In this document: positions 5,703 to 56,524 of the stretch, piece after piece
Position numbering within the stretch: the first letter of the stretch is position 1
How the letters are laid out: every line of letters begins with the position of its first letter
Assembly (NCBI GenBank): GCA_951812955.1
Contig: OX638340.1
Span: forward strand, 1,920,001-1,984,000
DNA from: an uncultured Gemmatimonadota bacterium
Lineage (GTDB): Bacteria > JAAXHH01
Direction of reading: 5' to 3'
Length of the DNA: 64,000 nt
Notes under the pieces: model-generated
Told to the model about the DNA's origin: nothing
Databases searched by the model: none
What the model saw: only the letters and a program-made list of their open reading frames with translations
Program-made: the position numbers and the translations under genes

Positions 5703-6497
5703 ATGACGCTGGAACAGCAGATTCAGGCCATGCAGCTCGATGGCTGGTGCGTGCTGGACAACATCATTCCCGGGGACCGGCTTGACGAGGTACGCGGCCG
5801 GGTCATCGCTTCGACGAACCGGCACCGGAATCCCGACGCACCCGAAAACATCGGCCACGTGAGCGGTTTCCTGAAATACGACCAGTCGCTGGCGCCCTGG
5901 CTCGCGGACCGGCGGCTCCTCTGCCTGGTCGAGGCGCTGCTCGGACACCATTTCCGCATCTCCTTCACCACGGCCACCATCAACGAGCCGGGGAACGACC
6001 GCGGTGGATGGCACGCGGACTGGCCCTTCAACCAGCGGAACGCCGGCTATGTGCCCGCGCCGTACCCGGACGCGGTCATGCACCTGACGACCATCTGGAT
6101 GCTTTCTTCCTTCACCGGCGATAACGGCGGCACCCTCATCGTCCCGGGCAGTCATCGAGACTCCAACAACCCGACCGGAAATAACGGGGTTCTGCCCGAA
6201 GCACCCCATTCGACCGAGTTGAACGTGACCGGCGAGGCCGGAAGCGTCCTCGTCATGGACAGCCGTTTGTGGCATTCGACTGCCGCGAACACCTCGAAGG
6301 ATCCCCGCGTCGCCGTTGTCGTCCGCTACGCGCCCTGGTGGCTGAACCTGAACGTGCTGAAACCCGGCTCGGAAGACCGCAGGATCCTGGTAGACGAGAC
6401 CGGCGGAACGGAGAACCTGGTTCCCGCCCTTCCCCGCGACGTGTATGACGGACTACCCGGCGAATTGAAGCCCCTCGTAAGTCACTGGGTGGAGTAG
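5703..6497 (+). CDS. phytanoyl-CoA dioxygenase (PhyH) family Fe(II)/2-oxoglutarate dioxygenase
   Basis: HxD...H facial triad context ('WHADWP', 'RLWHST'), typical PhyH length. Confidence 0.7.
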   Translation: MTLEQQIQAMQLDGWCVLDNIIPGDRLDEVRGRVIASTNRHRNPDAPENIGHVSGFLKYDQSLAPWLADRRLLCLVEALLGHHFRISFTTATINEPGNDRGGWHADWPFNQRNAGYVPAPYPDAVMHLTTIWMLSSFTGDNGGTLIVPGSHRDSNNPTGNNGVLPEAPHSTELNVTGEAGSVLVMDSRLWHSTAANTSKDPRVAVVVRYAPWWLNLNVLKPGSEDRRILVDETGGTENLVPALPRDVYDGLPGELKPLVSHWVE

Positions 6498-6745
6498 GCG
6501 GCATTCCTTATACATTAAAATCCTCTGATCTATTTCTGTGGCATGTTCAAGGTTGCATTCCGTCTTCGTAACGGTGTTGACCTGAACCAGATCCGTTAAG
6601 GTCGAGTATACCTGCCTGGAAGATTCCAAGGTCCTGGAATCACACTACGTGGAACCAGGAAACATTTCTTCCGTCGCCACGGTCCAATGTGTTGGTTATT
6701 TGTCGATAACTTTTCCGATTCTGAATACTGCGATTGGAGGAGGTT

Positions 6746-8314
6746 ATGAGCCGGACTGGATTTGTCACGATTTTATGTGCGTGTTTAGGGCTTTCAAGCG
6801 CGTGCAGCATGCAGGAGTTCGGATTCGAGCGAGACGAACGAGAGATCGAATTTGAGCACGACGGGCAAGACTATATCGATAGCACCAGGCAGAAATACGA
6901 GGTGAACTCCGGTGGGACACTGACGGTCGATGCCAAATTTGGGGCAATTCGCATCAGAAGCTCGATCAATGATGAAGTAGATGTCCTGGTGAGAAAGCGA
7001 TTTCGGGCAACCGATGCTGACCAGGTTCGAAAAGCCTTCAGTAATATCGAAGTCGTAATCGAACAGACGTACAACGGGGTACGAATCGAAGTCGATCAGA
7101 TCAGGTACCCCACGTACACGAAATGGTTCTGGCAGGAAGACTGGCCGGATCGGGTCTATGTCGAAATCAATGTTATAGTGCCTGAGGAATACAACCTCGA
7201 CCTCATTACCATAAGCGGTGATATCCAGACGGGGAATATCGCAGGAAATGTGACGGCTGAGACTCTTACCGGGGAAATTTCGACCGGTCCCACCGAAGGT
7301 GACTTGAGCATAAAATCGAACAGCGGGAATATAGAAACCAGCCGCGTGGTAGGCAGGTTGCACACCACTACACTGACAGGTAACATCAAGATCGGCCCAG
7401 TGGATGGTGATGCCACGGTCGATTCAAACTCTGGTAGAATAGAAACAGGTACCGTAGAGGAGGATCTGCAAGCCAAGACCCTAACAGGTAACATCAAGAT
7501 CGGCCCAGTGGATGGTGAGGCCACGGTCGGTTCGAACTCTGGCAGTATAGAAACAGGTACCGTAGTGGGGAATCTGCACGCCAAGACCCTAACAGGTAAC
7601 ATCGAAACCGGCCCAGTGTTTGGTGATGCGACGGTCTCTTCGAACTCTGGCAGAATAGAAACAGGTGCCGTAGCGATGGATCTGCACGCCAAGACCCTAA
7701 CAGGTAACATCGAAACCGGCCCCGTGGATGGTGATGCGACCGTCTCTTCGGCGACTGGCAGAATAAAAACAGGTACCGTAGAGGGGGATCTGCACGCTAG
7801 GACCTCAACAGGTAAAATCGAGATCGGTCCTGTGGATGGTGATGCAAACGTCAGTACGACATCTGGTATGGTCGAGGCCTCAAACGTGTTAGGGGTTTTC
7901 GAAACCAGATCCCTGAGCGGAGATATCAGACTAGGCCCCACAAGTGGCGACATTGTTGCTAGTTCAACCAGTGGTGATATCGAGGGGGAATTGATCGTAA
8001 CCGATCCATCCGTCGAGGCCAGGTACGACATGCAGACTCTGAGCGGAGATATAACCATTCAAATGCCAGTTGACATCCCGTCTGTTATTGATGCGCAGAT
8101 CACTATCGGGGAGATCATTGATCCGTGGTTGCCAAATTGGTGGCATGTCCAAAGGCGAATTAAATCCGATTTCGACCTGAACTTTAGTAGAATAGAATCT
8201 AGCCCAGGGAACTATGCAATTAAAGCTATCGGTGAAACGAATGGCGGTGGAAACAGAATCAAGCTGGTATCTACCGCTGGTAACATACGTATCCGAAGTA
8301 AAGACGATGAGTAG
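6746..8314 (+). CDS. DUF4097-like repeat protein / putative adhesin-type beta-solenoid lipoprotein (paralog 1 of 3)
   Basis: GGAGGAGG RBS before ATG; signal peptide with lipobox-like 'LGLSSAC'; long run of 18/36-aa 'TLTGNIxxGPxxGDxxVxSxSGxIET' repeats. Confidence 0.7.
   Translation: MSRTGFVTILCACLGLSSACSMQEFGFERDEREIEFEHDGQDYIDSTRQKYEVNSGGTLTVDAKFGAIRIRSSINDEVDVLVRKRFRATDADQVRKAFSNIEVVIEQTYNGVRIEVDQIRYPTYTKWFWQEDWPDRVYVEINVIVPEEYNLDLITISGDIQTGNIAGNVTAETLTGEISTGPTEGDLSIKSNSGNIETSRVVGRLHTTTLTGNIKIGPVDGDATVDSNSGRIETGTVEEDLQAKTLTGNIKIGPVDGEATVGSNSGSIETGTVVGNLHAKTLTGNIETGPVFGDATVSSNSGRIETGAVAMDLHAKTLTGNIETGPVDGDATVSSATGRIKTGTVEGDLHARTSTGKIEIGPVDGDANVSTTSGMVEASNVLGVFETRSLSGDIRLGPTSGDIVASSTSGDIEGELIVTDPSVEARYDMQTLSGDITIQMPVDIPSVIDAQITIGEIIDPWLPNWWHVQRRIKSDFDLNFSRIESSPGNYAIKAIGETNGGGNRIKLVSTAGNIRIRSKDDE
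7373..7912 (+). repeat. intragenic tandem array, 5 x 108-bp units (36-aa protein repeats), first four highly similar at nucleotide level
   Basis: Units begin at 7373, 7481, 7589, 7697, 7805 (ctaacaggtaacatc...); directly visible in sequence. Confidence 0.75.
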
Positions 8315-8406
8315 TAGAGCGAAGACACAACCATTGAATCCCTACGGAAGTCTCAATGACAACTCCGGTAGATGTCTTTACTACACAACCGTGGGAGTGG
8401 AATAGT

Positions 8407-9171
8407 ATGAAGACGATATGGATCACAGCGATTACGTGTATAGGTATTTATCCGGTTCTTGATTCCGGCGCGCAGACCACAGAGGTCATTCAAGTTGGGC
8501 AAGGATACGCGGCAACCATTGAAGAAACATTTACTGTGGAACCGGGCGGCGAACTGACCATCGATGCCGACTTCGGATCCGTCCGGATCGAGACTTCGAC
8601 GAGCAACACCGTGGAGGTTCTTGTGGAAAAGCGCCTGAAAGAGGGCACCGAAGACCAGGCACGCCGAGCCTTCGAAGAAGTGGAGGTAACAACAGAACAG
8701 CGGGGCAACGACGTACACATCGACGTTGACAATTCGCGATGGTTCAAGCGCGCCAGGGTTTCCGTAGCTATGACCGTGCAGGTGCCTTATACATACAGTC
8801 TGGATATCAAGACGGCAGGAGGCGGCATCGAAATCGGGAACCTGGACGGCGAGATCACGGCGAAGACTGCAGGCGGAAGCATCAGGACAGGAACCACGAA
8901 AGGGGACGTGACCGCCAAGACCCTGGGCGGAAGCATCCGTATCGGCCCGACTGAGGGAGGCGTGTCTGCCAAGACGATGGGCGGAAATATCGCTATAGGG
9001 GATACGAATGGGGACGTGTCGGCCCACACGCTGGGTGGAAGCATCCGCATCGGCATTGCGGACGGGGATGTACTTGCCAGGACGATGGGCGGAAACATCA
9101 CCGTTGAAGAAGCCTCGGGTAAAGTGTCTGCCAAGACCCTGGGCGGAAAAGTCCGGGTCGGTTCCACGTAA
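8407..9171 (+). CDS. DUF4097-like repeat protein (paralog 2), secreted
   Basis: Signal peptide 'MKTIWITAITCIGIYPVLDSGAQ'; 20-aa 'KTxGGxIxIGxxxGDVxA' repeats; start moved to 8407 (RBS GGGAGTGG) rather than track start 8356. Confidence 0.65.
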   Translation: MKTIWITAITCIGIYPVLDSGAQTTEVIQVGQGYAATIEETFTVEPGGELTIDADFGSVRIETSTSNTVEVLVEKRLKEGTEDQARRAFEEVEVTTEQRGNDVHIDVDNSRWFKRARVSVAMTVQVPYTYSLDIKTAGGGIEIGNLDGEITAKTAGGSIRTGTTKGDVTAKTLGGSIRIGPTEGGVSAKTMGGNIAIGDTNGDVSAHTLGGSIRIGIADGDVLARTMGGNITVEEASGKVSAKTLGGKVRVGST

Positions 9172-9219: not shown

Positions 9220-10506
9220 ATGATGCGTTTGTTATTGGTCGTGGTCAGTGTCAGTCTGCTCGTTGCCTCGGCATATGCATGCAGCGCACAGGAGGTCACG
9301 TTTATGCGCGACGATATGAGTCACGTAGAAAGAACCCACCAGAAATACATGGTGGATGGAACCGGCACGTTGACCGTAGACGCCGACTTCGGTTCGATTC
9401 GGATCGAGAGCTGGCCGAACGATGAAGTGGACGTCGAGGTAGAAAAACGCCGGACTGGAGTCAGCGAAGACAGCGCACGCGACGACTTCAACGACGTTGC
9501 CGTGGATATCTCACAACGGGAGAACGACGTCGACATCCAGATCGACCGGAAAAGCCGTTTCGGGTCGGAGAGGGTATCAGTGGATATACAGGTCCGGGTG
9601 CCGGAATCGTATAGCCTGGACCTCAAGACCTCGGGCGGGGATATCGATATCGGAGACCTGCGGGGCGACGTTTCCGCCCGCACCTCGGGAGGCGACGTCA
9701 ACGTCGGCACAGTGACGGAAGCGCTGCTCCGCGTTCACACGTCAGGAGGCGATGTGACCGTGAAAGGGGGCGGACGGGAAACGAAGGTATCCACCTCCGG
9801 CGGGGATATTGAGATCCGGGACGCCCGGGGCACAGTGGATGCGACCACCTCGGGCGGTGATATCACGATCGGCGGCACGGCCGGCGAAGTGACGGTGAGA
9901 ACATCGGGCGGCGATATCGAAATAGATCGGGCTGCGGGAAACACAGAGGCGACTACCTCGGGCGGCGACATAACGATAGGCCATACCACAGGGGACGTGA
10001 AGGCGAAGACCTCCGGCGGCGATATCACGATCGAGCGCGCAAACGGTGAGGTGGACGTTCATACTTCGGGTGGCGATGTGACCATCGACAGCGCTGAAGG
10101 AACCCTGAGGGCGGGCACTTCGGGTGGTGATATATCGATCAGCAATGCGCCGGGTGCCGGCTTAACGGCGAAAACCTCGGGTGGCGATATCGAAGCCCGT
10201 TTGAGCCCGACAGCAAGTGCATTGGAAGAAGAATGGATACTGAAGTCGTCCGGTGGGGAACTGACCATCCGCATTCCCGAGGATCTGTCCGCTACAGTCG
10301 AGGCGGAGATCCATCATGAGCGTTCCTGGTTCGGAAGCGACCGGGGGGATTATCAAATCGACTCGGATTTCGACCTGGACGAAGAGGTAGATGACGGTCG
10401 GGACCGAAGGACGATCCGGGCCACCGGCGATATCAACGGGGGCGGCAATCGCATCCGGCTCGAAACCAGCGGCGGCGATATTCGGATTCGTAAGGTGACT
10501 TCCTGA
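9220..10506 (+). CDS. DUF4097-like repeat protein (paralog 3), secreted
   Basis: Signal peptide 'MMRLLLVVVSVSLLVASAYACSAQ'; about 13 x 20-aa 'TSGGDIxIxxxxGxVxAx' repeats; RBS AAGGGAGGG. Confidence 0.7.
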   Translation: MMRLLLVVVSVSLLVASAYACSAQEVTFMRDDMSHVERTHQKYMVDGTGTLTVDADFGSIRIESWPNDEVDVEVEKRRTGVSEDSARDDFNDVAVDISQRENDVDIQIDRKSRFGSERVSVDIQVRVPESYSLDLKTSGGDIDIGDLRGDVSARTSGGDVNVGTVTEALLRVHTSGGDVTVKGGGRETKVSTSGGDIEIRDARGTVDATTSGGDITIGGTAGEVTVRTSGGDIEIDRAAGNTEATTSGGDITIGHTTGDVKAKTSGGDITIERANGEVDVHTSGGDVTIDSAEGTLRAGTSGGDISISNAPGAGLTAKTSGGDIEARLSPTASALEEEWILKSSGGELTIRIPEDLSATVEAEIHHERSWFGSDRGDYQIDSDFDLDEEVDDGRDRRTIRATGDINGGGNRIRLETSGGDIRIRKVTS

Positions 10507-27150: not shown

Positions 27151-28098
27151 ATGAACCATTCGCCAACCGATACGTCCGCGCCGACAGGTACGCTCGCGCC
27201 AACCAGGCACGACCCTATCGAAGTTTCTCCGATACGGGCGGTGAACGTGGCTTTGGTCCCTCAACGAAGTCCGCTGCGGTACCCCGGTGGAAAGACGTGG
27301 CTGATTCCGCATATCCGGTTCTGGCTCGGCAAGATCGACCCTTCGCCTCGACTTCTGATCGAACCCTTCGCCGGCGGCGGGATCGTCTCCCTGACAGCGG
27401 TCATGGAAGGACTGGCCGAGCGGTGCATCATGGCGGAACTGGACCCCGACGTGGCTGCTTTCTGGCAGGCGGCGCTCAGGTCCGGACCTGAGCTCTGCGA
27501 CAAGGTGCTGCGCTTCCGACCAACGCGGGAAGCCGTCGAAGCCGTGGCGAGTATCAGACCGAGCGACCCGGTAGACCATGGTTTCCGCACGCTCGTGCTC
27601 AACCGAACGCGAAGGGGTGGCATTCTGGCTCCCGGCGCGGCGCTCAGTCGGGCGGGAGAAAACGGGAAGGGCGTCGCGTCCCGCTGGTATCCCGAAACCA
27701 TCGTAGGCCGTTTACGAGAGATCGCGGAACACGCCGACCGCATCGGCTTTCGCGAAACCGACGGCATCGGGTTGTTGGAGGAGTTGCTGGAAGCACGCGC
27801 GGGATCGGCGCTGGAGAACCCTTCCGACCCGGTGGTCTTCGCCGACCCTCCGTACACGGCCGGCGGCAAGCGCGCGGGAAGGCGGCTGTACACCCACAAC
27901 GAGATCGACCATCACCGGTTGTTCGAACTGCTTGCGGACAGCGGTGCGCGTTTCCTGATGACCTACGACAGGTCGTCCGAGATCGTGGCTCTCAGCCGGA
28001 AGCATGGATTCCACGCGGTACAGGTGACCATGAAGAACACCCATCACGCACGGATACCGGAACTGATCATCACCCCCGAACCGGTGTTCGTCAGTTGA
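27151..28098 (+). CDS. D12-class (Dam-like) N6-adenine DNA methyltransferase
   Basis: 'RYPGGK' motif I region and 'FADPPY' catalytic motif IV; start taken at MNHSPTDT (track ORF begins 27034). Confidence 0.8.
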   Translation: MNHSPTDTSAPTGTLAPTRHDPIEVSPIRAVNVALVPQRSPLRYPGGKTWLIPHIRFWLGKIDPSPRLLIEPFAGGGIVSLTAVMEGLAERCIMAELDPDVAAFWQAALRSGPELCDKVLRFRPTREAVEAVASIRPSDPVDHGFRTLVLNRTRRGGILAPGAALSRAGENGKGVASRWYPETIVGRLREIAEHADRIGFRETDGIGLLEELLEARAGSALENPSDPVVFADPPYTAGGKRAGRRLYTHNEIDHHRLFELLADSGARFLMTYDRSSEIVALSRKHGFHAVQVTMKNTHHARIPELIITPEPVFVS

Positions 28099-28973
28099 GT
28101 TCCCGTTACGGCATCGCGGAATGGTACGGGTTGCCATTCCCCTATCTCCCACCTGCTGCCCGCCATCATCTTGCAAAAAAAGCGTTACGGGAAGACCCCA
28201 ATGCTCCCGCGTGTCCGTTTCAAAACGGCCGGCCTCCATGCCGAAAGCGTGGCGGAATATGTTCCCTTGTTCGCTATGAACGGGATTCGGACGGAAGGCT
28301 TGGCTTGCCAAAAGGAAATCCGGTCATCGTTTGTCCGTCCCGATTCGAGGAAGAGCAACTGCTCGTTACCTGGTTGGCCGAGATCGTTGGCTTTGGACCG
28401 GACGAGGCGATGATCGCTCGCGAAGTAGCCTTCATGGAAGGAACCAGCACGGAGAGACCGGCTGGAAAAATCGATCTAGTCGTCGCCAGGGCCTCCAATG
28501 ACGATCTGAAATGGTTTGGACTGGAAATACAAGCCGTCTATTTCTCAGGTCAAGGCATGCCGTCCGAGTTCGCCAACCTACGGGACGACGATCATCGAAG
28601 ACCACCGTTTCCAAACGCGGTCCGTAGACCGGACTGGCGCTCTTCGAGCGCAAAGCGCCTCATGCCGCAGTTGCAAATCAAAGTGCCGACGCTACGCCGA
28701 TGGGGTTCGAAACTCGCCGTGTCGGTAGACCGGCCGTTTTTCGATTCGATTGGTGGTCCCAGTGCGCATCCCAGCCAGGACCTCAACGATGGGGACATCA
28801 TCTGGTTGATCCCGGAGTTGAAGCGGGAAGCCGGTGGTAACTTCAGGCTCACTCGGGGACATTGGGAAGTGCTCACGTTGGAGGATACGACCCGGAAACT
28901 CCTTGCGGCGGAAACGATCCGGCGGGAAGCGTTTGAGCAGGAGCTCCGCAGCAAACTCGAAGCGCTTCGGTGA
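28095..28973 (+). CDS. NotI-family type II restriction endonuclease
   Basis: N-terminal alignment to R.NotI ('IAEWYG' vs 'IAEFFG', 'CPF', 'GICSL' vs 'GVCVV', 'VCPSRF' vs 'VCPNRA', Cys4 metal site); TTG start overlapping MTase stop (TTGA). Confidence 0.6.
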   Translation: MSSRYGIAEWYGLPFPYLPPAARHHLAKKALREDPNAPACPFQNGRPPCRKRGGICSLVRYERDSDGRLGLPKGNPVIVCPSRFEEEQLLVTWLAEIVGFGPDEAMIAREVAFMEGTSTERPAGKIDLVVARASNDDLKWFGLEIQAVYFSGQGMPSEFANLRDDDHRRPPFPNAVRRPDWRSSSAKRLMPQLQIKVPTLRRWGSKLAVSVDRPFFDSIGGPSAHPSQDLNDGDIIWLIPELKREAGGNFRLTRGHWEVLTLEDTTRKLLAAETIRREAFEQELRSKLEALR

Positions 28974-29073: not shown

Positions 29074-29950
29074 TTAAGCTACAGTTTTAACACGTGTCAT
29101 CCTCTGCTCGAACTCGACCGGCGGTCTGTAGTCCAGGGCCGAGTGCAAGCGCTTGCGATTGTATAGTTTGTCGATGAAGTAGCCGATGCGTGATCGGGCT
29201 TCTTCCAGGGATTCGTACTCGTAGAGATAGACCTCCTCGTATTTGAGCGTCCTGATGAAGCGCTCTGCCCTGGCGTTGTCATAGGGGTTGCCTTGCCGGC
29301 TCATGCTGATCCGTATGCCAGCGTTCTTGAGCGTGTCTACATAGGCTTTCGAGGCATACTGCACGCTCCGGTCGGAGTGATGCACAAGCCCTTTCTGCGC
29401 TGGTCTGGCGGCCAGGGCGCTGTCGAGGGCGTTCAGGGCCAAGGTGGCATCGAGGGTTCGATCCAAGGCCCAGCCGATGCATCTTCTGCTGCAGGCGTCA
29501 AGGATCACCGCCAGATAGACCCATTCGCGAGCCAGCCTTATGTAGGTGATGTCGGATACCCAGAGCTGGTTGACATTGGTTACGTTCAGTTCCGGGACCA
29601 GGTTGGCGTAAACGGCGCGGTCGTGATTCGAGTCGGTGGTCGCTACGAAGGCTCGGCGCCGCAGGGCAAGCAGGTTGTCCTCGCGCATGAGACGCAGAAC
29701 GCGCTTGTGGTTCACATGGTATCCCATACGCTTTAGCGCGCGGGTCATGGGACGGTAACCGTAGGCGGGTCAGGAAAGGGCGAGCCTGTGGATCTGATCC
29801 CGCAGTGCAAGGTCCGGATCCGTACGACCACGACGACCGCGGTAGTAGCTGGATCGACCGATCGAGAGCGTCCTGCACAGACGCTTGACCACGGCGCGGT
29901 CGGTGGACGCCTTTGATTGAGCGACCAGGCAGATCATGAGCTTCCTCCAT
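29074..29950 (-). pseudogene. IS3 transposase orfB (integrase core) interrupted by an in-frame TGA
   Basis: 'LCRTLSIGRSSYYRGRR...IHRLALS*PAYGYRPMTRALKRMGYHVNHKRVLRLMRE...DITYI...DRSVQYAS...YNRKRLHSALDYRPP' DDE/rve motifs. Confidence 0.7.
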
Positions 29951-30259
29951 TGCCTCGGGCTGAGCGTGGGATCTCCTCGAGCCGACTCAAGACTTTTTTT
30001 AACACATCGTTCTCCATGGTCAGTTGACCGACCTTGCGCTCAAGGGCCTAGGGTCCGGGCCTCGTCACTTACCGCCTTGCCATCCATTACCGGGGAAAGC
30101 GCGGTCGCCCTGGCGGCGAAGCTGCTGACGCCACCTGTGGATCAGCGTAGGATGGACCTGGTGTTCTCGGGCCAACTGGCTGATGGATTTGCCCGAATCG
30201 GCTTCCTGGAGAACCTGGAGCTTGAACTCGCGGGTGAACTGACGGCGTTTCAGGGACAT
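29951..30259 (-). pseudogene. IS3 transposase orfA (HTH), frameshifted
   Basis: 'MSLKRRQFTREFKLQVLQEADSGKSISQLAREHQVHPTLIHRWRQQL' then stop; leucine-zipper part 'ALERKVGQLTMENDVLKKVLSRLEE' continues in another frame. Confidence 0.65.
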
Positions 30260-30328
30260 GGGGTACCTCCTCGTTCAGAAGGAAGCTTAACTCACTGTCC
30301 CGGACAAGGGTGCAGTACACAGAACACG

Positions 30329-31252
30329 TTACAGAGGAAGTTTGTTGTAGCTGATTCCGAATCCAAACCGCACATCGTAAGAGCTCTGAGTCGGGACGGT
30401 GCTAAGCTCTTCGATATTCGAAGTATCGATCTTAGAGCCGCCCTGCATCGTCGGACCTTGACTTATATGAGCACCAAAGGTGAGCCAAGTAGACTTTCCG
30501 ATCTCCAAACTTGGACCGAAGATATATTCTAGAACCGTTCCCGGTTCGCCTCCGATTTCTGCGAGCGTTCCTAAACTCAAGTTTACATCCCAACCATTAC
30601 CAATCCGCAAAACGTGCGAATTAACAACGGTTCCTGGCATCACTTGGAAATCCGACCAACTTGTGAAGAAACCGACGCTAATAGAGAACGGGGACTCGCA
30701 AACGAACGTGACCAAAGGATACTCATTCTTCTTGGCGGCTTCGTTTTTCTCCCCGTCCTCATTATCTTGCGGGAACAAGTCGAAAACCACCAAGGTCCAC
30801 TCTTCTTTTCGAGATTTGAAGTCGCACTCGATCGACTGTGAGATTTCAGACTTGGTGCCCTTGTGCATCTCAATAGATGATTGAAGGTATCTTTTTAATG
30901 CCGTAATCTGATCGTTCGCTTGACTCCACTTACTTTCTGCTAATTCAATCTCTACAAGAGCACTGCCAGTCTGCGTCAACGCACTGTCAATCTGTGCCAA
31001 CAAAACACTGTCAGGTAATTGCAATGCACCGCCAAGTGCCTCCCTGTTGTTCCTATTTGCCAAGTTCATCAAACGATCCTGAAGGGAAACTTGGCGATCC
31101 TGAAGGGAAGATATCTGCGGCCAGTTTCCCTTCTCAATTTCACCTATGAGTTGACCGCTTCTGTATATCAGTGTGTCGCTTGGAAAATACATATTACTAA
31201 TATCAATGAAATCGCGCAGTTTCTTAATCTGATTAGAGGTTACTTGACGCAA
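30329..31252 (-). CDS. hypothetical protein (AT-rich foreign gene; coiled-coil N-terminus, beta-rich C-terminus)
   Basis: 307-aa ORF with markedly lower GC than surroundings; no recognisable motifs. Confidence 0.45.
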   Translation of the reverse strand: MRQVTSNQIKKLRDFIDISNMYFPSDTLIYRSGQLIGEIEKGNWPQISSLQDRQVSLQDRLMNLANRNNREALGGALQLPDSVLLAQIDSALTQTGSALVEIELAESKWSQANDQITALKRYLQSSIEMHKGTKSEISQSIECDFKSRKEEWTLVVFDLFPQDNEDGEKNEAAKKNEYPLVTFVCESPFSISVGFFTSWSDFQVMPGTVVNSHVLRIGNGWDVNLSLGTLAEIGGEPGTVLEYIFGPSLEIGKSTWLTFGAHISQGPTMQGGSKIDTSNIEELSTVPTQSSYDVRFGFGISYNKLPL

Positions 31253-31767
31253 GCTGTTAGCCTGGTTTTGTGCAACGTCGGTTTCTTAAGCAAAGAGGCG
31301 GTTTCTCTAAATAAAGAATCGATGCCTTCAGGCGGTGTGCCAACGTTGCTTATATTAAACGAGGAATTGACGTTTTGAAACACACTATCAGCCTGGATTT
31401 CATTCGTCATCTCCCATTGGCATAGCTGGCGCAGGTAGTTGAGCGTATTGGGGGCGTCAAGCGCCTCAACCTGACGGCGGATTTCGTATCTATAGCGAAC
31501 TAAGTTAAGATCCACTACTGTGATGGATGCTTTGTAATGAACTTGCACTTCACCATAGGAACCTTGGGGCCTTTGAAGGGAGTAAGTCAAATCTTGTCCG
31601 GCAGCTACCGGCATATCTGATCCGACAAACAACAGCACACCGGCGATGTGGAAAAGAGCATTTAATAGACGATACTTCGTCCGAGATCCCCGTGGTGGTC
31701 CTAAGGAAACGAGCGGTATTCCTGAAATGACGGTTCTCACGTTTCGGTTCTCCGACATCCCTTTCAT
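31240..31767 (-). CDS. hypothetical protein with N-terminal signal-anchor
   Basis: 175-aa ORF overlapping downstream gene by 13 nt (operon); hydrophobic segment 'LLNALFHIAGVLLFVGS'. Confidence 0.4.
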   Translation of the reverse strand: MKGMSENRNVRTVISGIPLVSLGPPRGSRTKYRLLNALFHIAGVLLFVGSDMPVAAGQDLTYSLQRPQGSYGEVQVHYKASITVVDLNLVRYRYEIRRQVEALDAPNTLNYLRQLCQWEMTNEIQADSVFQNVNSSFNISNVGTPPEGIDSLFRETASLLKKPTLHKTRLTACVK

Positions 31768-31849
31768 AAACGACCTCCTGTAATTGGCCTCAAAAACTGG
31801 ATCTCGTCAAAGGTGGATGTACCATAGCAGACAACCCGGCACGCGGAAG

Positions 31850-32245
31850 GCCGATGGTATGTTGAAAAGACGCAGACGGGCCCAGCGTCCGGTGCAAGTT
31901 TCAGGTGGCTCTCGAAGCGCTCATGGGACTGAAGGCCATCAGCCAGTTGGCCGCGGAGCATCAAGGCCAACACAATCAGATCACCAAATGGAAACGCCGG
32001 TTACTCGATGAGGGCGATCAAGTTTTTAACCACAGGCGACCGGTCCCGATGGCGTTCAAGATGCCATAGTGGACCAGCTCTACGAGCAGATCGGACGCTT
32101 GAAGATGGAACTGAAGTGGCTAAAAAAGTTGCCCTTTCAACGCGTCACAGACGCCTGATGATCGATGTCGATACGCCTCGGCTTTCCATACGCTGTCATT
32201 GCGAACTGATGGATCTTTCAAGGTCCAGCTTCTACCAAGAATAGG
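31850..32245 (+). mobile_element. fragment of a second IS3-family element (orfA remnant plus first ~20 codons of orfB), frameshifted and truncated
   Basis: Frames give 'KFQVALEALMGLKAISQLAAEHQGQHNQITKWKRRLLDEGDQVF', 'VDQLYEQIGRLKMELKWLKKL', 'LSIRCHCELMDLSRSSFYQE*'. Confidence 0.55.
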
Positions 32246-32273
32246 ACTTGCATAACATTAGCATGTCGGGCAG

Positions 32274-33062
32274 TTACAATGTATTACGGATCCTGTTCGC
32301 TATACACTTGAATACCCATTCATTAGGATGGAGTTCATCATCCCAGAAATTCTTGTAATGACCTGGACTGTTACTAAGAAGATCACGAACATCTACGTAA
32401 CGTACATAGTCATAGTTTACTGCCAACAACTGAAGCATTTCGTTGAACTTGTCTATCAGTACCTCCATCACCCTGGTAGCAAACCAAAGGTCATCGTGAC
32501 TTTTTTTAATATTGTATCCCTTTTTCCTGAATACCGGATAGAGCCAAGGCCCCTTTACCTTTATCCAAAACTTGAACTTGCGTCCATCGGGAACTGGGTG
32601 GCCATATCCATGGACGATTATCGGAATATCACTTTGGGGCCAATACACTAAACAAGCTCCCCTTATAACTTCGATAAGTTGCGAGTAGTAAGTACGAAGA
32701 TAGCAGAATATCATTTTCTGGACTTCATTCGTGTCTAACGCACTATTTACATCTGATGCTGATGTACGATCGTTAAGCATTTTCTTCAGCTTCTTTGTCA
32801 GATCATTGCCGCCACCGGAGAGGAGGACTGCTTTGGGTTTGCTATTGAGTTTGTGTAGTTTTTGTAGTTTTTTAAGAAGGGCTTTGTGTTGTTCTTGTGC
32901 ATAGGCCATATCCTTGAGCGTGTCACCGTGTTTAGCTACACTTCTCACTTTGTATCCCATGCCCCTTAACCCCTCTAATACATCATCAGCTTGATTTGTA
33001 GAGTTTGGCAAATCGAACCATGAATCACCCTCCGCTACCAAGATTGGTTTTTGATTTGGCAT
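32274..33062 (-). CDS. SGNH/GDSL-family hydrolase (AT-rich foreign gene)
   Basis: Block I 'VAEGDSWFD', block III 'GGGND', block V 'DELHPN'; low GC. Confidence 0.55.
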   Translation of the reverse strand: MPNQKPILVAEGDSWFDLPNSTNQADDVLEGLRGMGYKVRSVAKHGDTLKDMAYAQEQHKALLKKLQKLHKLNSKPKAVLLSGGGNDLTKKLKKMLNDRTSASDVNSALDTNEVQKMIFCYLRTYYSQLIEVIRGACLVYWPQSDIPIIVHGYGHPVPDGRKFKFWIKVKGPWLYPVFRKKGYNIKKSHDDLWFATRVMEVLIDKFNEMLQLLAVNYDYVRYVDVRDLLSNSPGHYKNFWDDELHPNEWVFKCIANRIRNTL

Positions 33063-33184: not shown

Positions 33185-33532
33185 TTAGTACAGATCGACC
33201 CGGAAGGCGCCTCGCGTCAAGGCCTCCTGCAGTCTCGTCTGGTGGCTGCGATGACGCGGATGTCCGATGATACTGCCCGGACGCTTCCCAAGGGACGATA
33301 GGTCTTCTCGGAGAGGACCCGCAGCGTGGATCGCCTTGGCGATCAGTTCCTTGCCGGCCCCCGTTTCGCCCGTGATCAATACGGGCATATCCTTTGATGC
33401 GTAACGGTAGGCTCTCGCCGGGATCCATTTCATCTCGTGGCTCCTGTGCTTGATCGCATCGAAGGCGCCGTGCGCTTCATGCCCTTGCGCTGGTTCCGGC
33501 GGATTCTGGCTCGTCATCAGGGAGTACGCCAT
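33185..33532 (-). pseudogene. fragment of a sigma-54-dependent transcriptional activator (start of AAA+ domain only)
   Basis: 'VLITGETGAGKELIAKAIH' Walker A of the sigma-54 interaction domain, then divergence and stop after about 115 aa. Confidence 0.5.
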
Positions 33533-52488: not shown

Positions 52489-52845
52489 ATGACGGAACAC
52501 GCTCAACACAGCCCGCACACTGAAAGCGGCCACGGGGAACACCACGGACCCCATATCGCGAGTGTGGCCAACTATCTGACCATCTTTGCGGCGTTGCTGG
52601 TCCTCACGGCAGTGACCGTGTGGGTCGCCACCGTGGACCTCGGTCTCTTCAACACGGTCGTGGCCATGGCCATCGCCTCCGTCAAGGCCATCCTGGTCAT
52701 ACTGTACTTCATGCATCTGAAGTTCAGCCCCGGCCAGACCAAGCTCGCCGCAGCAGCCGCTATCTTCTGGCTGCTGATCCTCCTCATCATTACCTTCTTC
52801 GATTACATCGGACGTACCTGGCAGGACAATCCGCCCGGTTGGTAG
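52489..52845 (+). CDS. cytochrome c oxidase subunit IV (prokaryotic caa3-type small subunit)
   Basis: 118 aa, three TM helices, directly after coxC; start set at ATGACGGAACAC. Confidence 0.6.
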   Translation: MTEHAQHSPHTESGHGEHHGPHIASVANYLTIFAALLVLTAVTVWVATVDLGLFNTVVAMAIASVKAILVILYFMHLKFSPGQTKLAAAAAIFWLLILLIITFFDYIGRTWQDNPPGW

Positions 52846-53518
52846 GGGCGGCGACTTCAATGACGAAACCCCTTACGATATTTGACCCCGCCCTGTTGTT
52901 CCAAGCCCGATTGGAAAACAGTTAAGGAGCCCGCTATCTACCTTGATGTCCGGTCAAGAGGTATGATGTACTTCGTTCTGACGATAATCACGTAGAACGC
53001 CGGGACCGCGGGGACGCTGCCTACCCCTTTGGGCCTGGGAAACACCGTCCGGGATAGGATCACGGGAAATTCACCAATAATGTGCTATTCACTTACAACT
53101 TACTTCATATCATGTATATTTGATAGCGAAGACTGATCAAAGTATCATATAATCTTGTTCATTCAAGCCACGCCAGGACTTGAGATGAGCCTTGAAGTTG
53201 TACCGCTTGAACAATTCTCCTTCGTCTGATTTACTTGCCTATACCAAGCAGTGTGATCTAAGGAAACTCATTACAGTTCACCTCCTCGCGGCACACTTAG
53301 GCTTACCCCCCAATACACCATACGACCGGTACGGCTTAGTACGAACTTATCCGCGTTCACCGCCCAACTGTTCAAGTGTAAAAATCGCTTTTGGACGAAC
53401 GTGCCTGCTCGGTGTTAATAAAGGTCCGTTCTGTTCGGACGATGTGACATGAAGTTCCACTCGATCGACGTATCAATCCCCTATTTATTGTTGTCGAAAC
53501 GGAAGGATAGAAAATACC

Positions 53519-54586
53519 ATGATAATTCGCTTTAGCATACTGCTTCTGTTTATTGCGCTTCTCGCTTGCGAAGGAAAACCGGGTCCAACCGGCTCCTCAG
53601 GATCTAGAGGTCCCGCTGGACCACAGGGATCTGTGGGATCAATTGGGCCAATTGGACCCCAGGGTGAAACTGGACAGACCGGCGCCCAGGGCCCGGCGGG
53701 ACCGCAGGGGTCGGCAGGCGAACCCCTGAACTGGGCGGACGTGATCGAGGAAGGGAATATTGACGAGGCCGTTTATGCGATCGGTGTTCGAGTACGTGGA
53801 CAAAACTACGTGCTGGGATCAGGATTCGTTGCTCACTTTACGAACGCGATTTGGACCAATGCCCACGTTGTTGAAGCAGTAATCTCCGAGATCAGATCTA
53901 TTGCATATCTCGATCCGAGACCATTTGCCGTAAAATCGGGAACGGTGGTCGGCGGATCGGATACGTATTGGTTGAACACATACCGCCTTCATCCTAATTA
54001 CGATGGCACGACAGTATCGCCAGATGTGGCGTTGTTGATAATCGATGCGAGCCTGACGGGCCTTCCTTCTTTCTTGCCAAGAGACCACATCCATGGACTG
54101 CGCGTGGGACAACCGATAGCTACAATGGGGTTCCCCGGTGAGCTTTCGGAAACTCCAAAAGAGGTTCCGATAGCTACCTTCAAAGAGGGTACCATCAGCG
54201 CGATGCGTCCCTTCGCGGATGTAATCGCCACCCCAGAAAACAGTCGAGTCATCCAACATAACCTGGACTTGACTGGGGGTACGAGCGGCAGCCTCATCTT
54301 TGACCATGAGGGATTCATCATAGGGATAAACCACGCTGGGTATGAAAGGATTGTATACGACGTAAATGGAAATCCTCAACGTGTACCTACGGGTAATATC
54401 GGACTTGGTATCCGGGTAGATGAGATGTGGAGTCTTTTCGATCAGACTAGAGTGCGCCGGACGGCACCAAAAGTCGCGGGAAGGACCGCAAGCACCGTGT
54501 TGGAACTCCTCCCTTCAAGAGACTATCCGCATTCTACCTATCAACCTTTCCCCGTAAACTGGAACGGAGAGACTGTTGTGCCTTAG
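53519..54586 (+). CDS. lipoprotein with collagen-like (GXY)17 repeat fused to trypsin-like serine protease domain (Trypsin_2/S1)
   Basis: Lipobox 'LLAC'; 'GKPGPTGSSGSRGPAGPQGSVGSIGPIGPQGETGQTGAQGPAGPQGSAGEP'; catalytic-triad motifs 'WTNAHVV', 'DVALLII', 'GGTSGSLIF'; AT-rich. Confidence 0.7.
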   Translation: MIIRFSILLLFIALLACEGKPGPTGSSGSRGPAGPQGSVGSIGPIGPQGETGQTGAQGPAGPQGSAGEPLNWADVIEEGNIDEAVYAIGVRVRGQNYVLGSGFVAHFTNAIWTNAHVVEAVISEIRSIAYLDPRPFAVKSGTVVGGSDTYWLNTYRLHPNYDGTTVSPDVALLIIDASLTGLPSFLPRDHIHGLRVGQPIATMGFPGELSETPKEVPIATFKEGTISAMRPFADVIATPENSRVIQHNLDLTGGTSGSLIFDHEGFIIGINHAGYERIVYDVNGNPQRVPTGNIGLGIRVDEMWSLFDQTRVRRTAPKVAGRTASTVLELLPSRDYPHSTYQPFPVNWNGETVVP

Positions 54587-55153
54587 TACTTCAGCAGAAT
54601 CGTAGATGTTTCGAACCCCGCAGGCGTCCAACGGTTTTAAATTTAAAGTACCAGTCGCCAGCGGGGTTTTCTATTGGACGTGGTCGGTATCAGACCGTCA
54701 TACCGCTCAAGGTTTTCATTTTCTGTCGGTGATAATTCAAACCCAAAAAAGATACGATTAAATCCTAACAAAACAGACTATGCCTAAAAGATATCAGCTC
54801 TGCTGCGTGTAATTCGTATCATGGCAGGTACCCGATCGTATATGCCATAGATCGATCATCTTAATGAGGCAGGAAAAGGGACGGTTTCAGTGGATGGTAT
54901 CCCGAATGTAAACTCGGAAGAACGGATTTCGCCTTCTAATGACGTTCTTGCAGTGGATATTGACGCTCCCTGAGAAAATGGTGGACCAACACGGTATCGG
55001 CGTCATCCGCACGGCGTCCTTCTTGCTGGCCAACGGAGAGCGAAGCGAGATGCCGGTAGCCGGCCCTCGCACTAGCCTGGGGTGGTGTCGAGCCACTCCC
55101 TGACGGCACCCACTGCTTCAACCCTACACGCAGATCAAGGCCGAGGCCCGGCG

Positions 55154-56524
55154 CTATTCCGGCTGACCGACCTCGCTTCTCGACAACCGATAGGTCGCGT
55201 ACATCAACCCGGATAGCAACACCAGCACCAGGCCGGTGCCGACGAGCAATGCGTATTCGTCTACGAGCAAGAGCAGATACAGGACCGTGTAGAGCGTCGC
55301 AAGCACGACGGACACGTATGCCGTGCCCCGGCCGGACCTGGAGGCGGCAGCGACGTATATTCCGTTCATCGACGTGATAAGCGCGGCCGCGATCAGGTAG
55401 CCCCATCCGAAACCGATGTGCTCGGCCAGCGACAGCAGCGCGAGAAAGAACACGACGAGGCCAATGCCCACCACGCCGAATTGCACGATGTGAAAGCGGA
55501 TGCCGGTAATCAGTTCTATGCATACCACGCTGATCATGGTGAAGACGATAAACAGAATACCGTATTGCAGGCTGCGGGTCACGGAACGATAGATGTCATC
55601 GGCCTTGAATACGCTGAATCCGACCCCTTCCCGGTATTCAGATGGAGCAGTCGCGTTCCGGCGGCCCGGTTCCGTGAAGGATTCGCCGCGGGTCGTGAAA
55701 GGCAGCATTTCGGCGGCACCGCGACCGTACGCGTCCAGAACGCGTGAATAACCTCTGGCGAGCCTTCCCGTGGTCCACTCGGCCGTGAAACCGCTGTCGT
55801 CCACGGTGTGTTCATCCGGCAGTATGCGACCGTCGAAGCTTGGATGGGGCCACGTCGACGTCATCGTGATACGCGTCTCGTCTCCCACGGGTTCAATGCC
55901 GAACCGCTCGGTCCCACGAAACGTGAGAGCGAGCTGAAACGTACGGTCCCACGTCATTCCGGCAAGACGCACCGGAGCCTGCACCCCTTCGCCAATCGTG
56001 TCGAAACCGGTACCGGACTCCAGATCGACCGGGATGTCGCCGAGTCTCAACGTTCCTTGCTGAATGCCCCGGGTGTCCGACACGCCCACTAGAACCGTCA
56101 TACGGTCCAGGATGATTTCACCGTACTGGTTCTGCAATTCCGAAACGTCGAGATCGGGGAATTCGCCGGTGGCGTCCAGGGACGCGGTGAAGACTGGTAC
56201 GTCGAAGATCCCTCTGGAACGGATTTCGTACGTACTGTTCAGTTCCGCGCTCAGTTTGTCGGGCATGACGAAGATATGCGGTTCGCCATCGGGGTAGCCC
56301 TCTCTGTCGTCGTCCTGGGGAGGGTTGTAGGGTATAGCCAGGATCGGTCCGACGATGGTCTGCGGCCCCGACCATGAATGACTGACGTTCGTAAGCGCCT
56401 CGTCCTGGTATCCGCTGCGGTCCATCACCACGACATTAAGCAATGCCCACGGGATCATCAGGCCGACGATCAGGATGATCGCGATCAGGAATCGAATGGT
56501 TGTCGACGAAGTATTGATTTGCAT
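55154..56524 (-). CDS. creD: cell-envelope integrity inner-membrane protein CreD family
   Basis: N-terminal TM, large periplasmic domain, C-terminal 5-TM bundle typical of CreD. Confidence 0.7.
   Translation of the reverse strand: MQINTSSTTIRFLIAIILIVGLMIPWALLNVVVMDRSGYQDEALTNVSHSWSGPQTIVGPILAIPYNPPQDDDREGYPDGEPHIFVMPDKLSAELNSTYEIRSRGIFDVPVFTASLDATGEFPDLDVSELQNQYGEIILDRMTVLVGVSDTRGIQQGTLRLGDIPVDLESGTGFDTIGEGVQAPVRLAGMTWDRTFQLALTFRGTERFGIEPVGDETRITMTSTWPHPSFDGRILPDEHTVDDSGFTAEWTTGRLARGYSRVLDAYGRGAAEMLPFTTRGESFTEPGRRNATAPSEYREGVGFSVFKADDIYRSVTRSLQYGILFIVFTMISVVCIELITGIRFHIVQFGVVGIGLVVFFLALLSLAEHIGFGWGYLIAAALITSMNGIYVAAASRSGRGTAYVSVVLATLYTVLYLLLLVDEYALLVGTGLVLVLLSGLMYATYRLSRSEVGQPE

Follow-up and report, generated by a model that had tools for sequence, protein, structure and literature searches.

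A putative lipid-anchored, collagen-stalked serine protease in a hypervariable slot of an uncultured Gemmatimonadota genome

How does a gene that joins a lipoprotein signal, a collagen-like repeat and a protease domain come to lie between a cox operon and creD, in DNA of lower GC than its neighbours, and what would its product do there? The question is raised by a 64,000-nucleotide stretch of an uncultured Gemmatimonadota bacterium (contig OX638340.1, positions 1,920,001 to 1,984,000), hereafter the window, whose numbering is used throughout unless a locus handle precedes the position. The original prediction, made from the letters alone, had proposed a stalk-presented, surface-anchored protease, possibly of phage or other horizontal origin. 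Our results make it somewhat probable that the product is an envelope lipoprotein composed of a lipid anchor, a trimeric collagen stalk and a protease head, probably a surface-exposed ‘lollipop’, encoded at a hypervariable accessory locus. As far as its sequence tells, the gene product would act in the manner of an S1 protease that a collagen-like stalk of bacterial type displays at the surface or anchors in the envelope.

One gene with a lipobox, a collagen-like run and a protease domain

The region holds one convincing gene, an open reading frame (ORF) on the plus strand that starts at the first start codon past an upstream stop; the other overlapping ORFs are short and lie antisense or off-frame. 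The gene is real and intact, and the window copy carries the full ORF, with the following parts.

53519..54586 (stop codon included), plus strand: coding sequence (CDS) of 355 aa with lipoprotein, collagen-like and Trypsin_2 parts, supported by the ORF itself, by profile searches and by a ratio of nonsynonymous to synonymous substitution rates (dN/dS) of 0.10-0.23 against intact orthologues
53519..53569, plus strand: signal peptide with lipobox LLAC, read from the sequence, Cys17 being the predicted lipidation site
53573..53725, plus strand: 17 G-X-Y triplets, residues 19-69, predicted triple-helical stalk of ~15 nm
53726..53761, plus strand: conserved junction LNWADVIEEGN, a short helix with a near-invariant Trp72, from family alignment and structure model
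53762..54448, plus strand: chymotrypsin-fold serine protease domain, about residues 82-310
53864-53866, 54023-54025 and 54284-54286, plus strand: catalytic codons of His116, Asp169 and Ser256
54509..54583, plus strand: conserved C-terminal tail (LPSRDYPHSTYQPFPVNWNGETVVP), with a recombination breakpoint in or just before it

The N-terminus, MIIRFSILLLFIALLAC, contains a single basic residue (R4), an 11-residue hydrophobic core and the lipobox L-L-A-C. The lipoprotein call was made by pattern matching alone (lipobox [LVI][ASTVI][GAS]C with a positive n-region and a hydrophobic core), and the same pattern of a signal peptidase II substrate recurs in 101 of the 120 best homologues. From G19 to P69 run exactly 17 unbroken G-X-Y triplets, as counted by regular expression, and Pfam Collagen (PF01391) matches residues 19-68 at 35.5 bits against a cut-off of 27.2. 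Trypsin_2 (PF13365, clan PA serine peptidases) matches residues 100-270 at 55.1 bits against a cut-off of 27.6. The His-Asp-Ser triad follows in that order on a double beta-barrel fold, with His116 in TNAHV, Asp169 in PDVAL and Ser256 in GTSGS, and the protein ends in ...NWNGETVVP. The lipoprotein signal, the 17 triplets and the Trypsin_2 domain with its triad had all been predicted, and each was borne out, the support coming from profile searches, a family alignment and a structure model. The fear that the G-X-Y run might be a low-complexity artefact can be put aside: it is read in frame within a conserved ORF, and nearly all of the best 120 homologues have such a run, of variable length.

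The gene had also been placed in an AT-rich stretch of its own. This AT-richness is relative (~50% GC): the upstream spacer has a GC of 0.47, the gene one of 0.53 and the downstream stretch one of 0.51, for a window mean of 0.59. The anomaly is nevertheless strong at third codon positions, where GC (GC3) is 0.51 in the gene and 0.74-0.87 in four neighbouring genes.

Searching 5.8 billion proteins gave 1374 hits, the best 120 of which (E < 1e-110, 51-83% identity) are nearly all 340-380 aa long and carry both Collagen and Trypsin_2; their public names, if any, are ‘hypothetical’, ‘serine protease’ or ‘trypsin-like peptidase’. The lipobox Cys lies at about position 17 in the 101 that have it, the G-X-Y run begins one to two residues after it, and this run counts 12-31 triplets in most of the 120. 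D169 and S256 (GTSGS) are invariant in the 120 sequences, and H116 is replaced once (in a 24-sequence alignment). Conservation extends to the junction LNWADVIE (W72) and to a C-terminal tail of the form DYPHxxYxPFPxNWNGETxLP, in which Y336, P337, Y341, F344, P345 and W348 are kept. A HMMER scan with the protease and tail only, against 1.84 billion representatives at 50% identity, found 901 relatives, 335 with E < 1e-10 and 76 with E < 1e-30. This large unnamed family is spread over Gemmatimonadota, Latescibacterota and some other bacteria, and several of its hosts are sponge symbionts. Taken singly, both the collagen-like stalk and the trypsin-fold protease are well known from bacteria; literature searches aimed at their combination found no description of a collagen-like stalk and a trypsin-fold or HtrA protease fused behind a lipobox.

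The genomes of L001, L003 and L015 hold elsewhere a second, divergent paralogue (L016, L018 and L019), 40-44% identical; within the window no paralogue of the protease gene was found. The window protein is nearer to Latescibacterota copies (47-58%) than to the paralogue of its own clade (40-44%).

What kind of protease is the head? An AlphaFold2 monomer model built from a 120-sequence alignment reached a mean per-residue confidence (pLDDT) of 76.5, mostly 82-95 in the protease core, and 86 and 77 in the blocks covering residues 331-350. Its best fold matches are Deg5, Deg1, DegP, DegS and PepD, the fold being closest to HtrA/Deg and V8 proteases, and in alignment TNAHV, PDVAL and GTSGS fall on the motifs that hold the catalytic His, Asp and Ser in Deg1 and in staphylococcal and Bacillus glutamyl endopeptidases. 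The link at sequence level is weak (family profile against Deg5, E 1.4e-4) and a Pfam profile search of the protein matched no PDZ domain. The head therefore falls between the S1C and S1B groups as a chymotrypsin-fold protease, which would work like them but stands outside the HtrA family as defined: the Do/HtrA model TIGR02037 scores it at 27.9 for a cut-off of 416.2. The likeness to the S1C enzymes (DegS, DegP, Deg5, HtrA1) is one of fold only, the PDZ domain being theirs and not this protein's. Among surface-anchored bacterial proteases of S1 type, the Mycoplasma MIP/DUF31 lipoprotein proteases and the trypsin-like domain of Gemella IgA1 protease show matches confined to the Ser motif (E 0.005-0.04), and have no collagen stalk. 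Weak generic trypsin matches to a retron RT-protease (reverse transcriptase-protease; PADLOC) were rejected since the protein is a secreted lipoprotein.

A variable slot between the cox operon and creD

Nucleotide identity to related genomes stays at 90-97% through the cox operon, ends at 52846-52852, where coxIV stops, and resumes at about 55054-55167. Homologues occupy this same slot, between coxIV and creD or an HGSNAT-like gene, in L001, L002, L003, L006, L009, L010, L015, L021 and L022/L023, and the slot is shared by at least nine related Gemmatimonadota genomes. What stands between coxIV and the gene varies by genome: nothing (~115-130 bp), an HNH-like gene, a 570-aa gene, an IS110, an IS200 transposase or a PEGA-like lipoprotein, and HigB/HigA-like pairs lie downstream of the gene in relatives' slots; these cargo labels come from reading ORF translations, with no profile search. 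The islet is a hypervariable accessory slot common to the clade, not a private insertion, and at least some members of the clade are sponge symbionts. Of the horizontal transfer that had been envisaged, a recent insertion in this genome does not stand, since the gene is the constant resident of a clade-wide slot, and what stands is an exchange of alleles inside the clade. L002 is a labelled Gemmatimonadetes metagenome-assembled genome (MAG) of the APA series, whose source is Aplysina aerophoba (PMC11706023), and we infer from the host list in PMC8163846 that L009, labelled IRC1, comes from an Ircinia sponge.

Besides the gene, the slot contains the following.

52846..53518, no strand assigned: orphan AT-rich spacer from the coxIV stop to the gene, 673 bp, GC 0.47, the 5' part of the variable slot
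54613..54675, plus strand: intrinsic-terminator-like hairpin (AACCCCGCaGGCGTC ... GtCGCCAGCGGGGTT) followed by a T-run (RNA fold -34.1 kcal/mol, z = -2.25)
54676..54889, plus strand: conserved non-coding stretch upstream of the start of a small downstream gene
54890..54973, plus strand: truncated start of this small gene, 27 codons (VDGIPNVNSEERISPSNDVL...); the full gene, L021:3537-3941, encodes 134 aa and is coiled-coil-repeat-like
54956..55085, plus strand: 5'-truncated remnant of a retropepsin-like gene (…LPEKMVDQHGIGVIRTASFLLANGERSEMPVAGP…), so labelled by sequence reading with no profile search; an intact 141-aa ORF is present in L015:9549-9974

The spacer gave no blastn or tblastx match in any related locus and no blastn match in phage records; it includes a sigma-70-like promoter match (53120-53148, 10 of 12) and a probably spurious 86-aa ORF (53192-53452). 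Rfam returned no match on the window at gathering threshold, and the single match for 52800-55200 at E <= 1, HBV_epsilon, is at chance level (E 0.43). Both arms of the terminator hairpin are kept in four genomes, the stem in L021 being a perfect 15 bp. Over the wider stretch 54588-54951, identity amounts to 87.5% with L002, 82.6% with L015 and 69% with L021, in step with the flanks and not with the CDS.

Could the gene then derive from a phage, as a tail-fibre-like gene or prophage remnant inserted beside the cox operon? Its G-X-Y part does match tail-fibre PHROGs (E ~1e-11 to 1e-12), its composition is AT-rich, and insertion sequences (IS) and toxin-antitoxin genes occur in the relatives' slot. 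The PHROG matches, however, are confined to residues 18-77, that is to the repeat. No relative was found by a family-alignment scan of IMG/VR, and tblastn of the protease part gave no match in GenBank phages or PLSDB plasmids. The flanks had been proposed as a place to look for an integration site or a tRNA: a tRNA scan of the whole window found none, direct, inverted and tandem repeats around the islet are only short chance-level pairs, and no integrase or phage structural gene was seen among the islet ORFs. Neither homology beyond G-X-Y nor a phage context, by which a phage collagen-like tail fibre is defined, is present, nor are the attachment site, integrase and flanking direct repeats of an island acquired by site-specific integration. 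Moreover, a lipoprotein signal is not a virion feature, and the orthologues in the slot form a single clade and keep their synteny across about ten genomes. A phage origin, the other half of the original proposal, is thus largely refuted and we hold it to be very improbable.

The gene has diverged much more than its surroundings. Flanking proteins are 75-99% identical to those of the window (CoxI 97-99%, CreD 81-96%) and the collagen-protease 58-86%; at the nucleotide level the flanks are 80-98% identical, for 65-83%, in a mosaic manner, in the protease-coding part. Synonymous divergence (dS) is 0.74-2.2 in the protease part, which a codon bias weaker than that of the flanks may inflate, and 0.06-0.69 in the flanking genes. 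The corresponding dN/dS are 0.10-0.23 (276-284 codons) and 0.02-0.27. Selection on the gene is purifying overall, and average positive selection is ruled out by these values.

The ranking of relatives by gene similarity is incongruent with their ranking by flanks. L015 is 98% identical in coxIII, 95% in creD and 65% in the protease-coding part, L002 is 96% identical in creD and 72% in the protease-coding part (coxIII gave no value there), and L021 is 93% identical in coxIII, 80.5% in creD and 83% in the protease-coding part. In a sliding comparison of 100 nt, identity to L002 and L015 leaps from about 60-70% to 83-95% between 54419 and 54519, and identity to L021 is highest, 86-93%, within 53719-54418 and lower afterwards. 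These jumps, together with the incongruent ranking, indicate that the gene is a mosaic: recombination among lineages of the clade has exchanged its body. A breakpoint lies inside the 3' end of the CDS, the gene body differing in history from the tail and the downstream region.

In a crude neighbour-joining tree the slot copies are all monophyletic and one Gemmatimonadaceae copy falls within a Latescibacterota group; this tree hints at transfer between phyla. Latescibacterota copies have a host-like GC3 (0.74-0.88), whereas the slot copies measured (0.46-0.55) do not resemble their host (flanks ~0.8). A Spirochaetia copy has a GC3 of 0.51 in a locus otherwise of 67% GC. The slot combines low GC with deep alleles, mosaicism and occasional loss, all between conserved flanks, and may by analogy be likened to surface-antigen loci such as O-antigen clusters, from which this pattern is familiar.

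Loss is documented by three pseudogenes among the slot orthologues retrieved. In L001, TGG has become TAG at Trp72 (L001:8150-8160); in L015 the same codon has become TGA (L015:8100-8115), with a truncated 5' end and frameshifts; and in L006 a frameshift comes right after the junction. The two independent stops fall on one near-invariant codon (window 53732-53734) and split stalk from protease at the domain boundary, a coincidence which may be chance, Trp codons being one transition from a stop.

One may ask whether the island is in fact degenerating and the gene an accessory one without function, on its way to decay and left intact here by chance. The three disrupted orthologues, the two gene remnants and the orphan spacer of the islet, and the low GC3 would agree with this. 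Yet the window copy is a full-length ORF with every family-invariant residue, the low dN/dS is maintained over 276-284 codons despite a dS near or above 1, and the terminator is conserved. We consider decay quite unlikely.

Stalk, head and cellular location

The collagen segment has a pLDDT below 50 in the monomer model, as would be expected for a chain that folds only as a trimer. HtrA proteases are trimers, which fits a three-chain stalk. Many distant relatives keep the lipobox, and the piece between Cys and protease varies in them: 4-33 G-X-Y triplets, other domains or a heptad-like helix. Thus P0195, P0197, P0215 and P0216 carry a lipobox and the same protease subfamily, with a coiled-coil-like segment of ~95 residues (e.g. 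CSSENPLAERVANLEQRLDEVEAAQEEDRLSLLGRLD) instead of the collagen run; P0197 has an additional insert of ~200 residues within the protease region. Conversely, the gene just upstream of a family member in L026 (L026:5295-6656) begins with MHYFIVVLMAFALSMYGC-EGK-(GXY)n, including a lipobox MYGC, goes on into Big_2 domains, and shares the C-E-G-K junction with the window protein. Since the same anchor-stalk module is found on different heads and the same head on different fibrous stalks, we read the G-X-Y run as a trimerising spacer; the collagen segment most likely acts as an oligomerising stalk, to judge from these domain exchanges. The stalk-presented, surface-anchored protease of the original prediction is the best available reading, helped by both the coiled-coil swaps and the Big_2 neighbour.

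Alternatively, the stalk itself could be the functional part, a collagen-mimicking adhesin or camouflage that binds host collagen receptors or matrix, the protease head serving mainly as trimerisation domain. Characterised bacterial collagen-like proteins (Scl1/2, BclA, Lcl) are indeed mostly adhesins with a globular trimerising domain, an adhesin role is proposed for the collagen-like lipoproteins that Burkholderia induces on contact with its host (PMC10224339), and the matrix of the host sponge is rich in collagen (PMC8163846). But the catalytic triad and the oxyanion motif are essentially invariant across the family, and a coiled coil can replace the collagen while the protease stays. The conserved element is therefore the protease and not the collagen, and we regard a mainly adhesive role as unlikely.

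For the collagen-stalked protease we propose the following model. Cleavage by signal peptidase II would leave a mature protein beginning at the lipidated Cys17, the G-X-Y triplets starting one residue on. Together with those of two further chains, the 17 triplets would form a rigid triple helix some 15 nm long (51 residues at a rise of 0.286 nm), the base of which would be held in the membrane by three lipidated cysteines. At its tip, this stalk would bear three HtrA/V8-like heads, each with the triad His116/Asp169/Ser256 and the conserved C-terminal wrap. The likeliest site would be the outer face of the outer membrane, from where the heads could cut extracellular proteins at a distance from the cell, candidate targets being host matrix or receptors, competitors or food. 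The gene itself is the constant resident of the slot, its protease-coding body being exchanged between lineages by recombination and sometimes lost.

The periplasm is the other location to consider. An HtrA-like protease of envelope maintenance could be lipid-tethered to the inner or outer membrane with the collagen stalk as periplasmic spacer, much as in E. coli the periplasm is bridged by the trimeric coiled coil of Lpp. The best fold matches, from Deg5 to PepD, would suit such an enzyme, as would the default fate of a diderm lipoprotein and the unmatched surface-export signal of Bacteroidota (see below), and the coiled-coil variants resemble Lpp-type lipoproteins. On the other hand, the locus is unlike that of a housekeeping gene: hypervariable and mosaic, with three pseudogene orthologues, a low GC3, IS and toxin-antitoxin cargo, and paralogues in several genomes. 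A run of 12-31 triplets (~2.5-fold) is hard to square with a fixed periplasmic width, the protein has no PDZ domain and scores 27.9 for 416 with the Do/HtrA model, and adhesin-type surface proteins adjoin the gene in other genomes (Big_2/LRR/CARDB and Calx-beta/LapA-type). We hold this periplasmic role to be possible, if doubtful.

The surface reading is ahead of the periplasmic one, though not by much. In its favour, stalk length differs ~2.5-fold among close relatives, and the Burkholderia collagen-like lipoproteins, proposed as surface adhesins, are predicted to be anchored in the outer membrane (PMC10224339). Several points speak against it. Lipoproteins of diderm bacteria stay in the periplasm by default, and the nearest folds, HtrA/Deg, belong mostly to periplasmic quality-control enzymes. 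The collagen part is unmodelled in the monomer. The synteny loci were all retrieved via the gene itself, such that empty slots would have escaped, and the gene's dS may be inflated, as said above. The C-E-G-K-P of this protein, with its single acidic residue, does not fit the surface-export signal known from Bacteroidota, in which K-(D/E)2 or Q-A-(D/E)2 directly follows the lipidated Cys (PMC5080379), a rule not validated for Gemmatimonadota; at least one acidic residue (D/E) stands within four positions after the Cys in 93 of the 101 lipobox members. As to the setting, sponge origin is documented for the APA MAG series only, that of IRC1 and COS4 being inferred from the host species of PMC8163846, and other family matches come from sediment or unlabelled samples.

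How does such a protein compare with known systems? Streptococcal Scl1/Scl2, Bacillus BclA and Legionella Lcl share the ‘lollipop’ plan, a G-X-Y stalk without hydroxyproline and a globular domain, with a strain-variable number of triplets. They are anchored via LPXTG or in the exosporium and their heads are non-enzymatic, whereas here an N-terminal lipobox abuts the helix and the head is a protease. NCBIfam gives weak, repeat-only matches to SclA, SclB and Lcl (39.4 for a cut-off of 400), and with a C-terminus devoid of LPXTG the protein falls outside the LPXTG-anchored collagen-like adhesins (Scl1/Scl2). The Bcc-CLPs of the Burkholderia cepacia complex (PMC10224339) are likewise diderm lipoproteins with collagen-like domains; they have a Collagen-middle-region signature and no protease domain, belong to another phylum, and are likened here without a shown sequence relationship.

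Eukaryotes also build on collagen stalks: collagen-tailed acetylcholinesterase (ColQ), MBL-MASP, C1q-C1r/C1s, membrane collagens and scavenger receptors. The shared principle is an enzyme or recognition head on a triple helix, in some cases paired with trypsin-fold proteases, an analogy and not a homology. There the protease or enzyme binds to the stalk as a chain of its own; here a single lipid-anchored polypeptide comprises both.

Other low-GC stretches and the sponge setting

Two further stretches of low GC lie in the window. A second islet (29074-33062, 2-kb GC down to 0.46), the labels of which come from translations read by eye, includes the following, with one more fragment just beyond.

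29074-29748, minus strand: IS3-type transposase fragment
30329-31252 and 31240-31767, minus strand: two unknown ORFs
32274-33062, minus strand: SGNH/GDSL-like ORF
33185-33532, minus strand: fragment resembling a sigma-54 activator

Adjoining this IS-bearing islet, a 292-aa ORF (28095-28973) with a Cys-rich N-terminus looks by eye restriction-endonuclease-like or of defence type. The third stretch (about 6250-9000) lies within three tandem paralogous genes on the plus strand (6734-8314, 8356-9171 and 9220-10506). Their products have signal peptides and consist of repeated ‘TxGGxIxIG’ units of beta type, and the GC of the first copy is far below that of the third.

Around the protease gene of other genomes, no recurrent partner gene (inhibitor, prolyl hydroxylase or substrate) was found among the three non-syntenic neighbourhoods examined.

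Taking the protein, its locus and its hosts together, a broader and quite tentative picture can be drawn. The family might amount to a hitherto undescribed class of trimeric serine proteases, lipid-anchored and collagen-stalked, which Gemmatimonadota, Latescibacterota, Zixibacteria and some Spirochaetia, sponge symbionts among them, would display at their surface. Such proteins would be the bacterial equivalent, in a single polypeptide, of collagen-tailed enzymes and of complexes between collagen stalks and proteases. Lineages, and now and then phyla, might exchange the protease heads under a frequency-dependent pressure exerted by host or phage, and these heads might act on host matrix or recognition proteins in the collagen-rich mesohyl of the sponge.

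If the trimeric lollipop is true, it would be a compact scaffold, made by nature, on which an enzyme is held out from the membrane by a fixed distance. It would also make these proteins candidate proteases for the interaction between symbiont and host in sponges; collagenases were not found there by a large MAG survey (PMC8163846). The locus, for its part, would be a clear case in uncultured Gemmatimonadota of a hypervariable locus that codes for protein, its alleles being deep and recombining and its flanks conserved.

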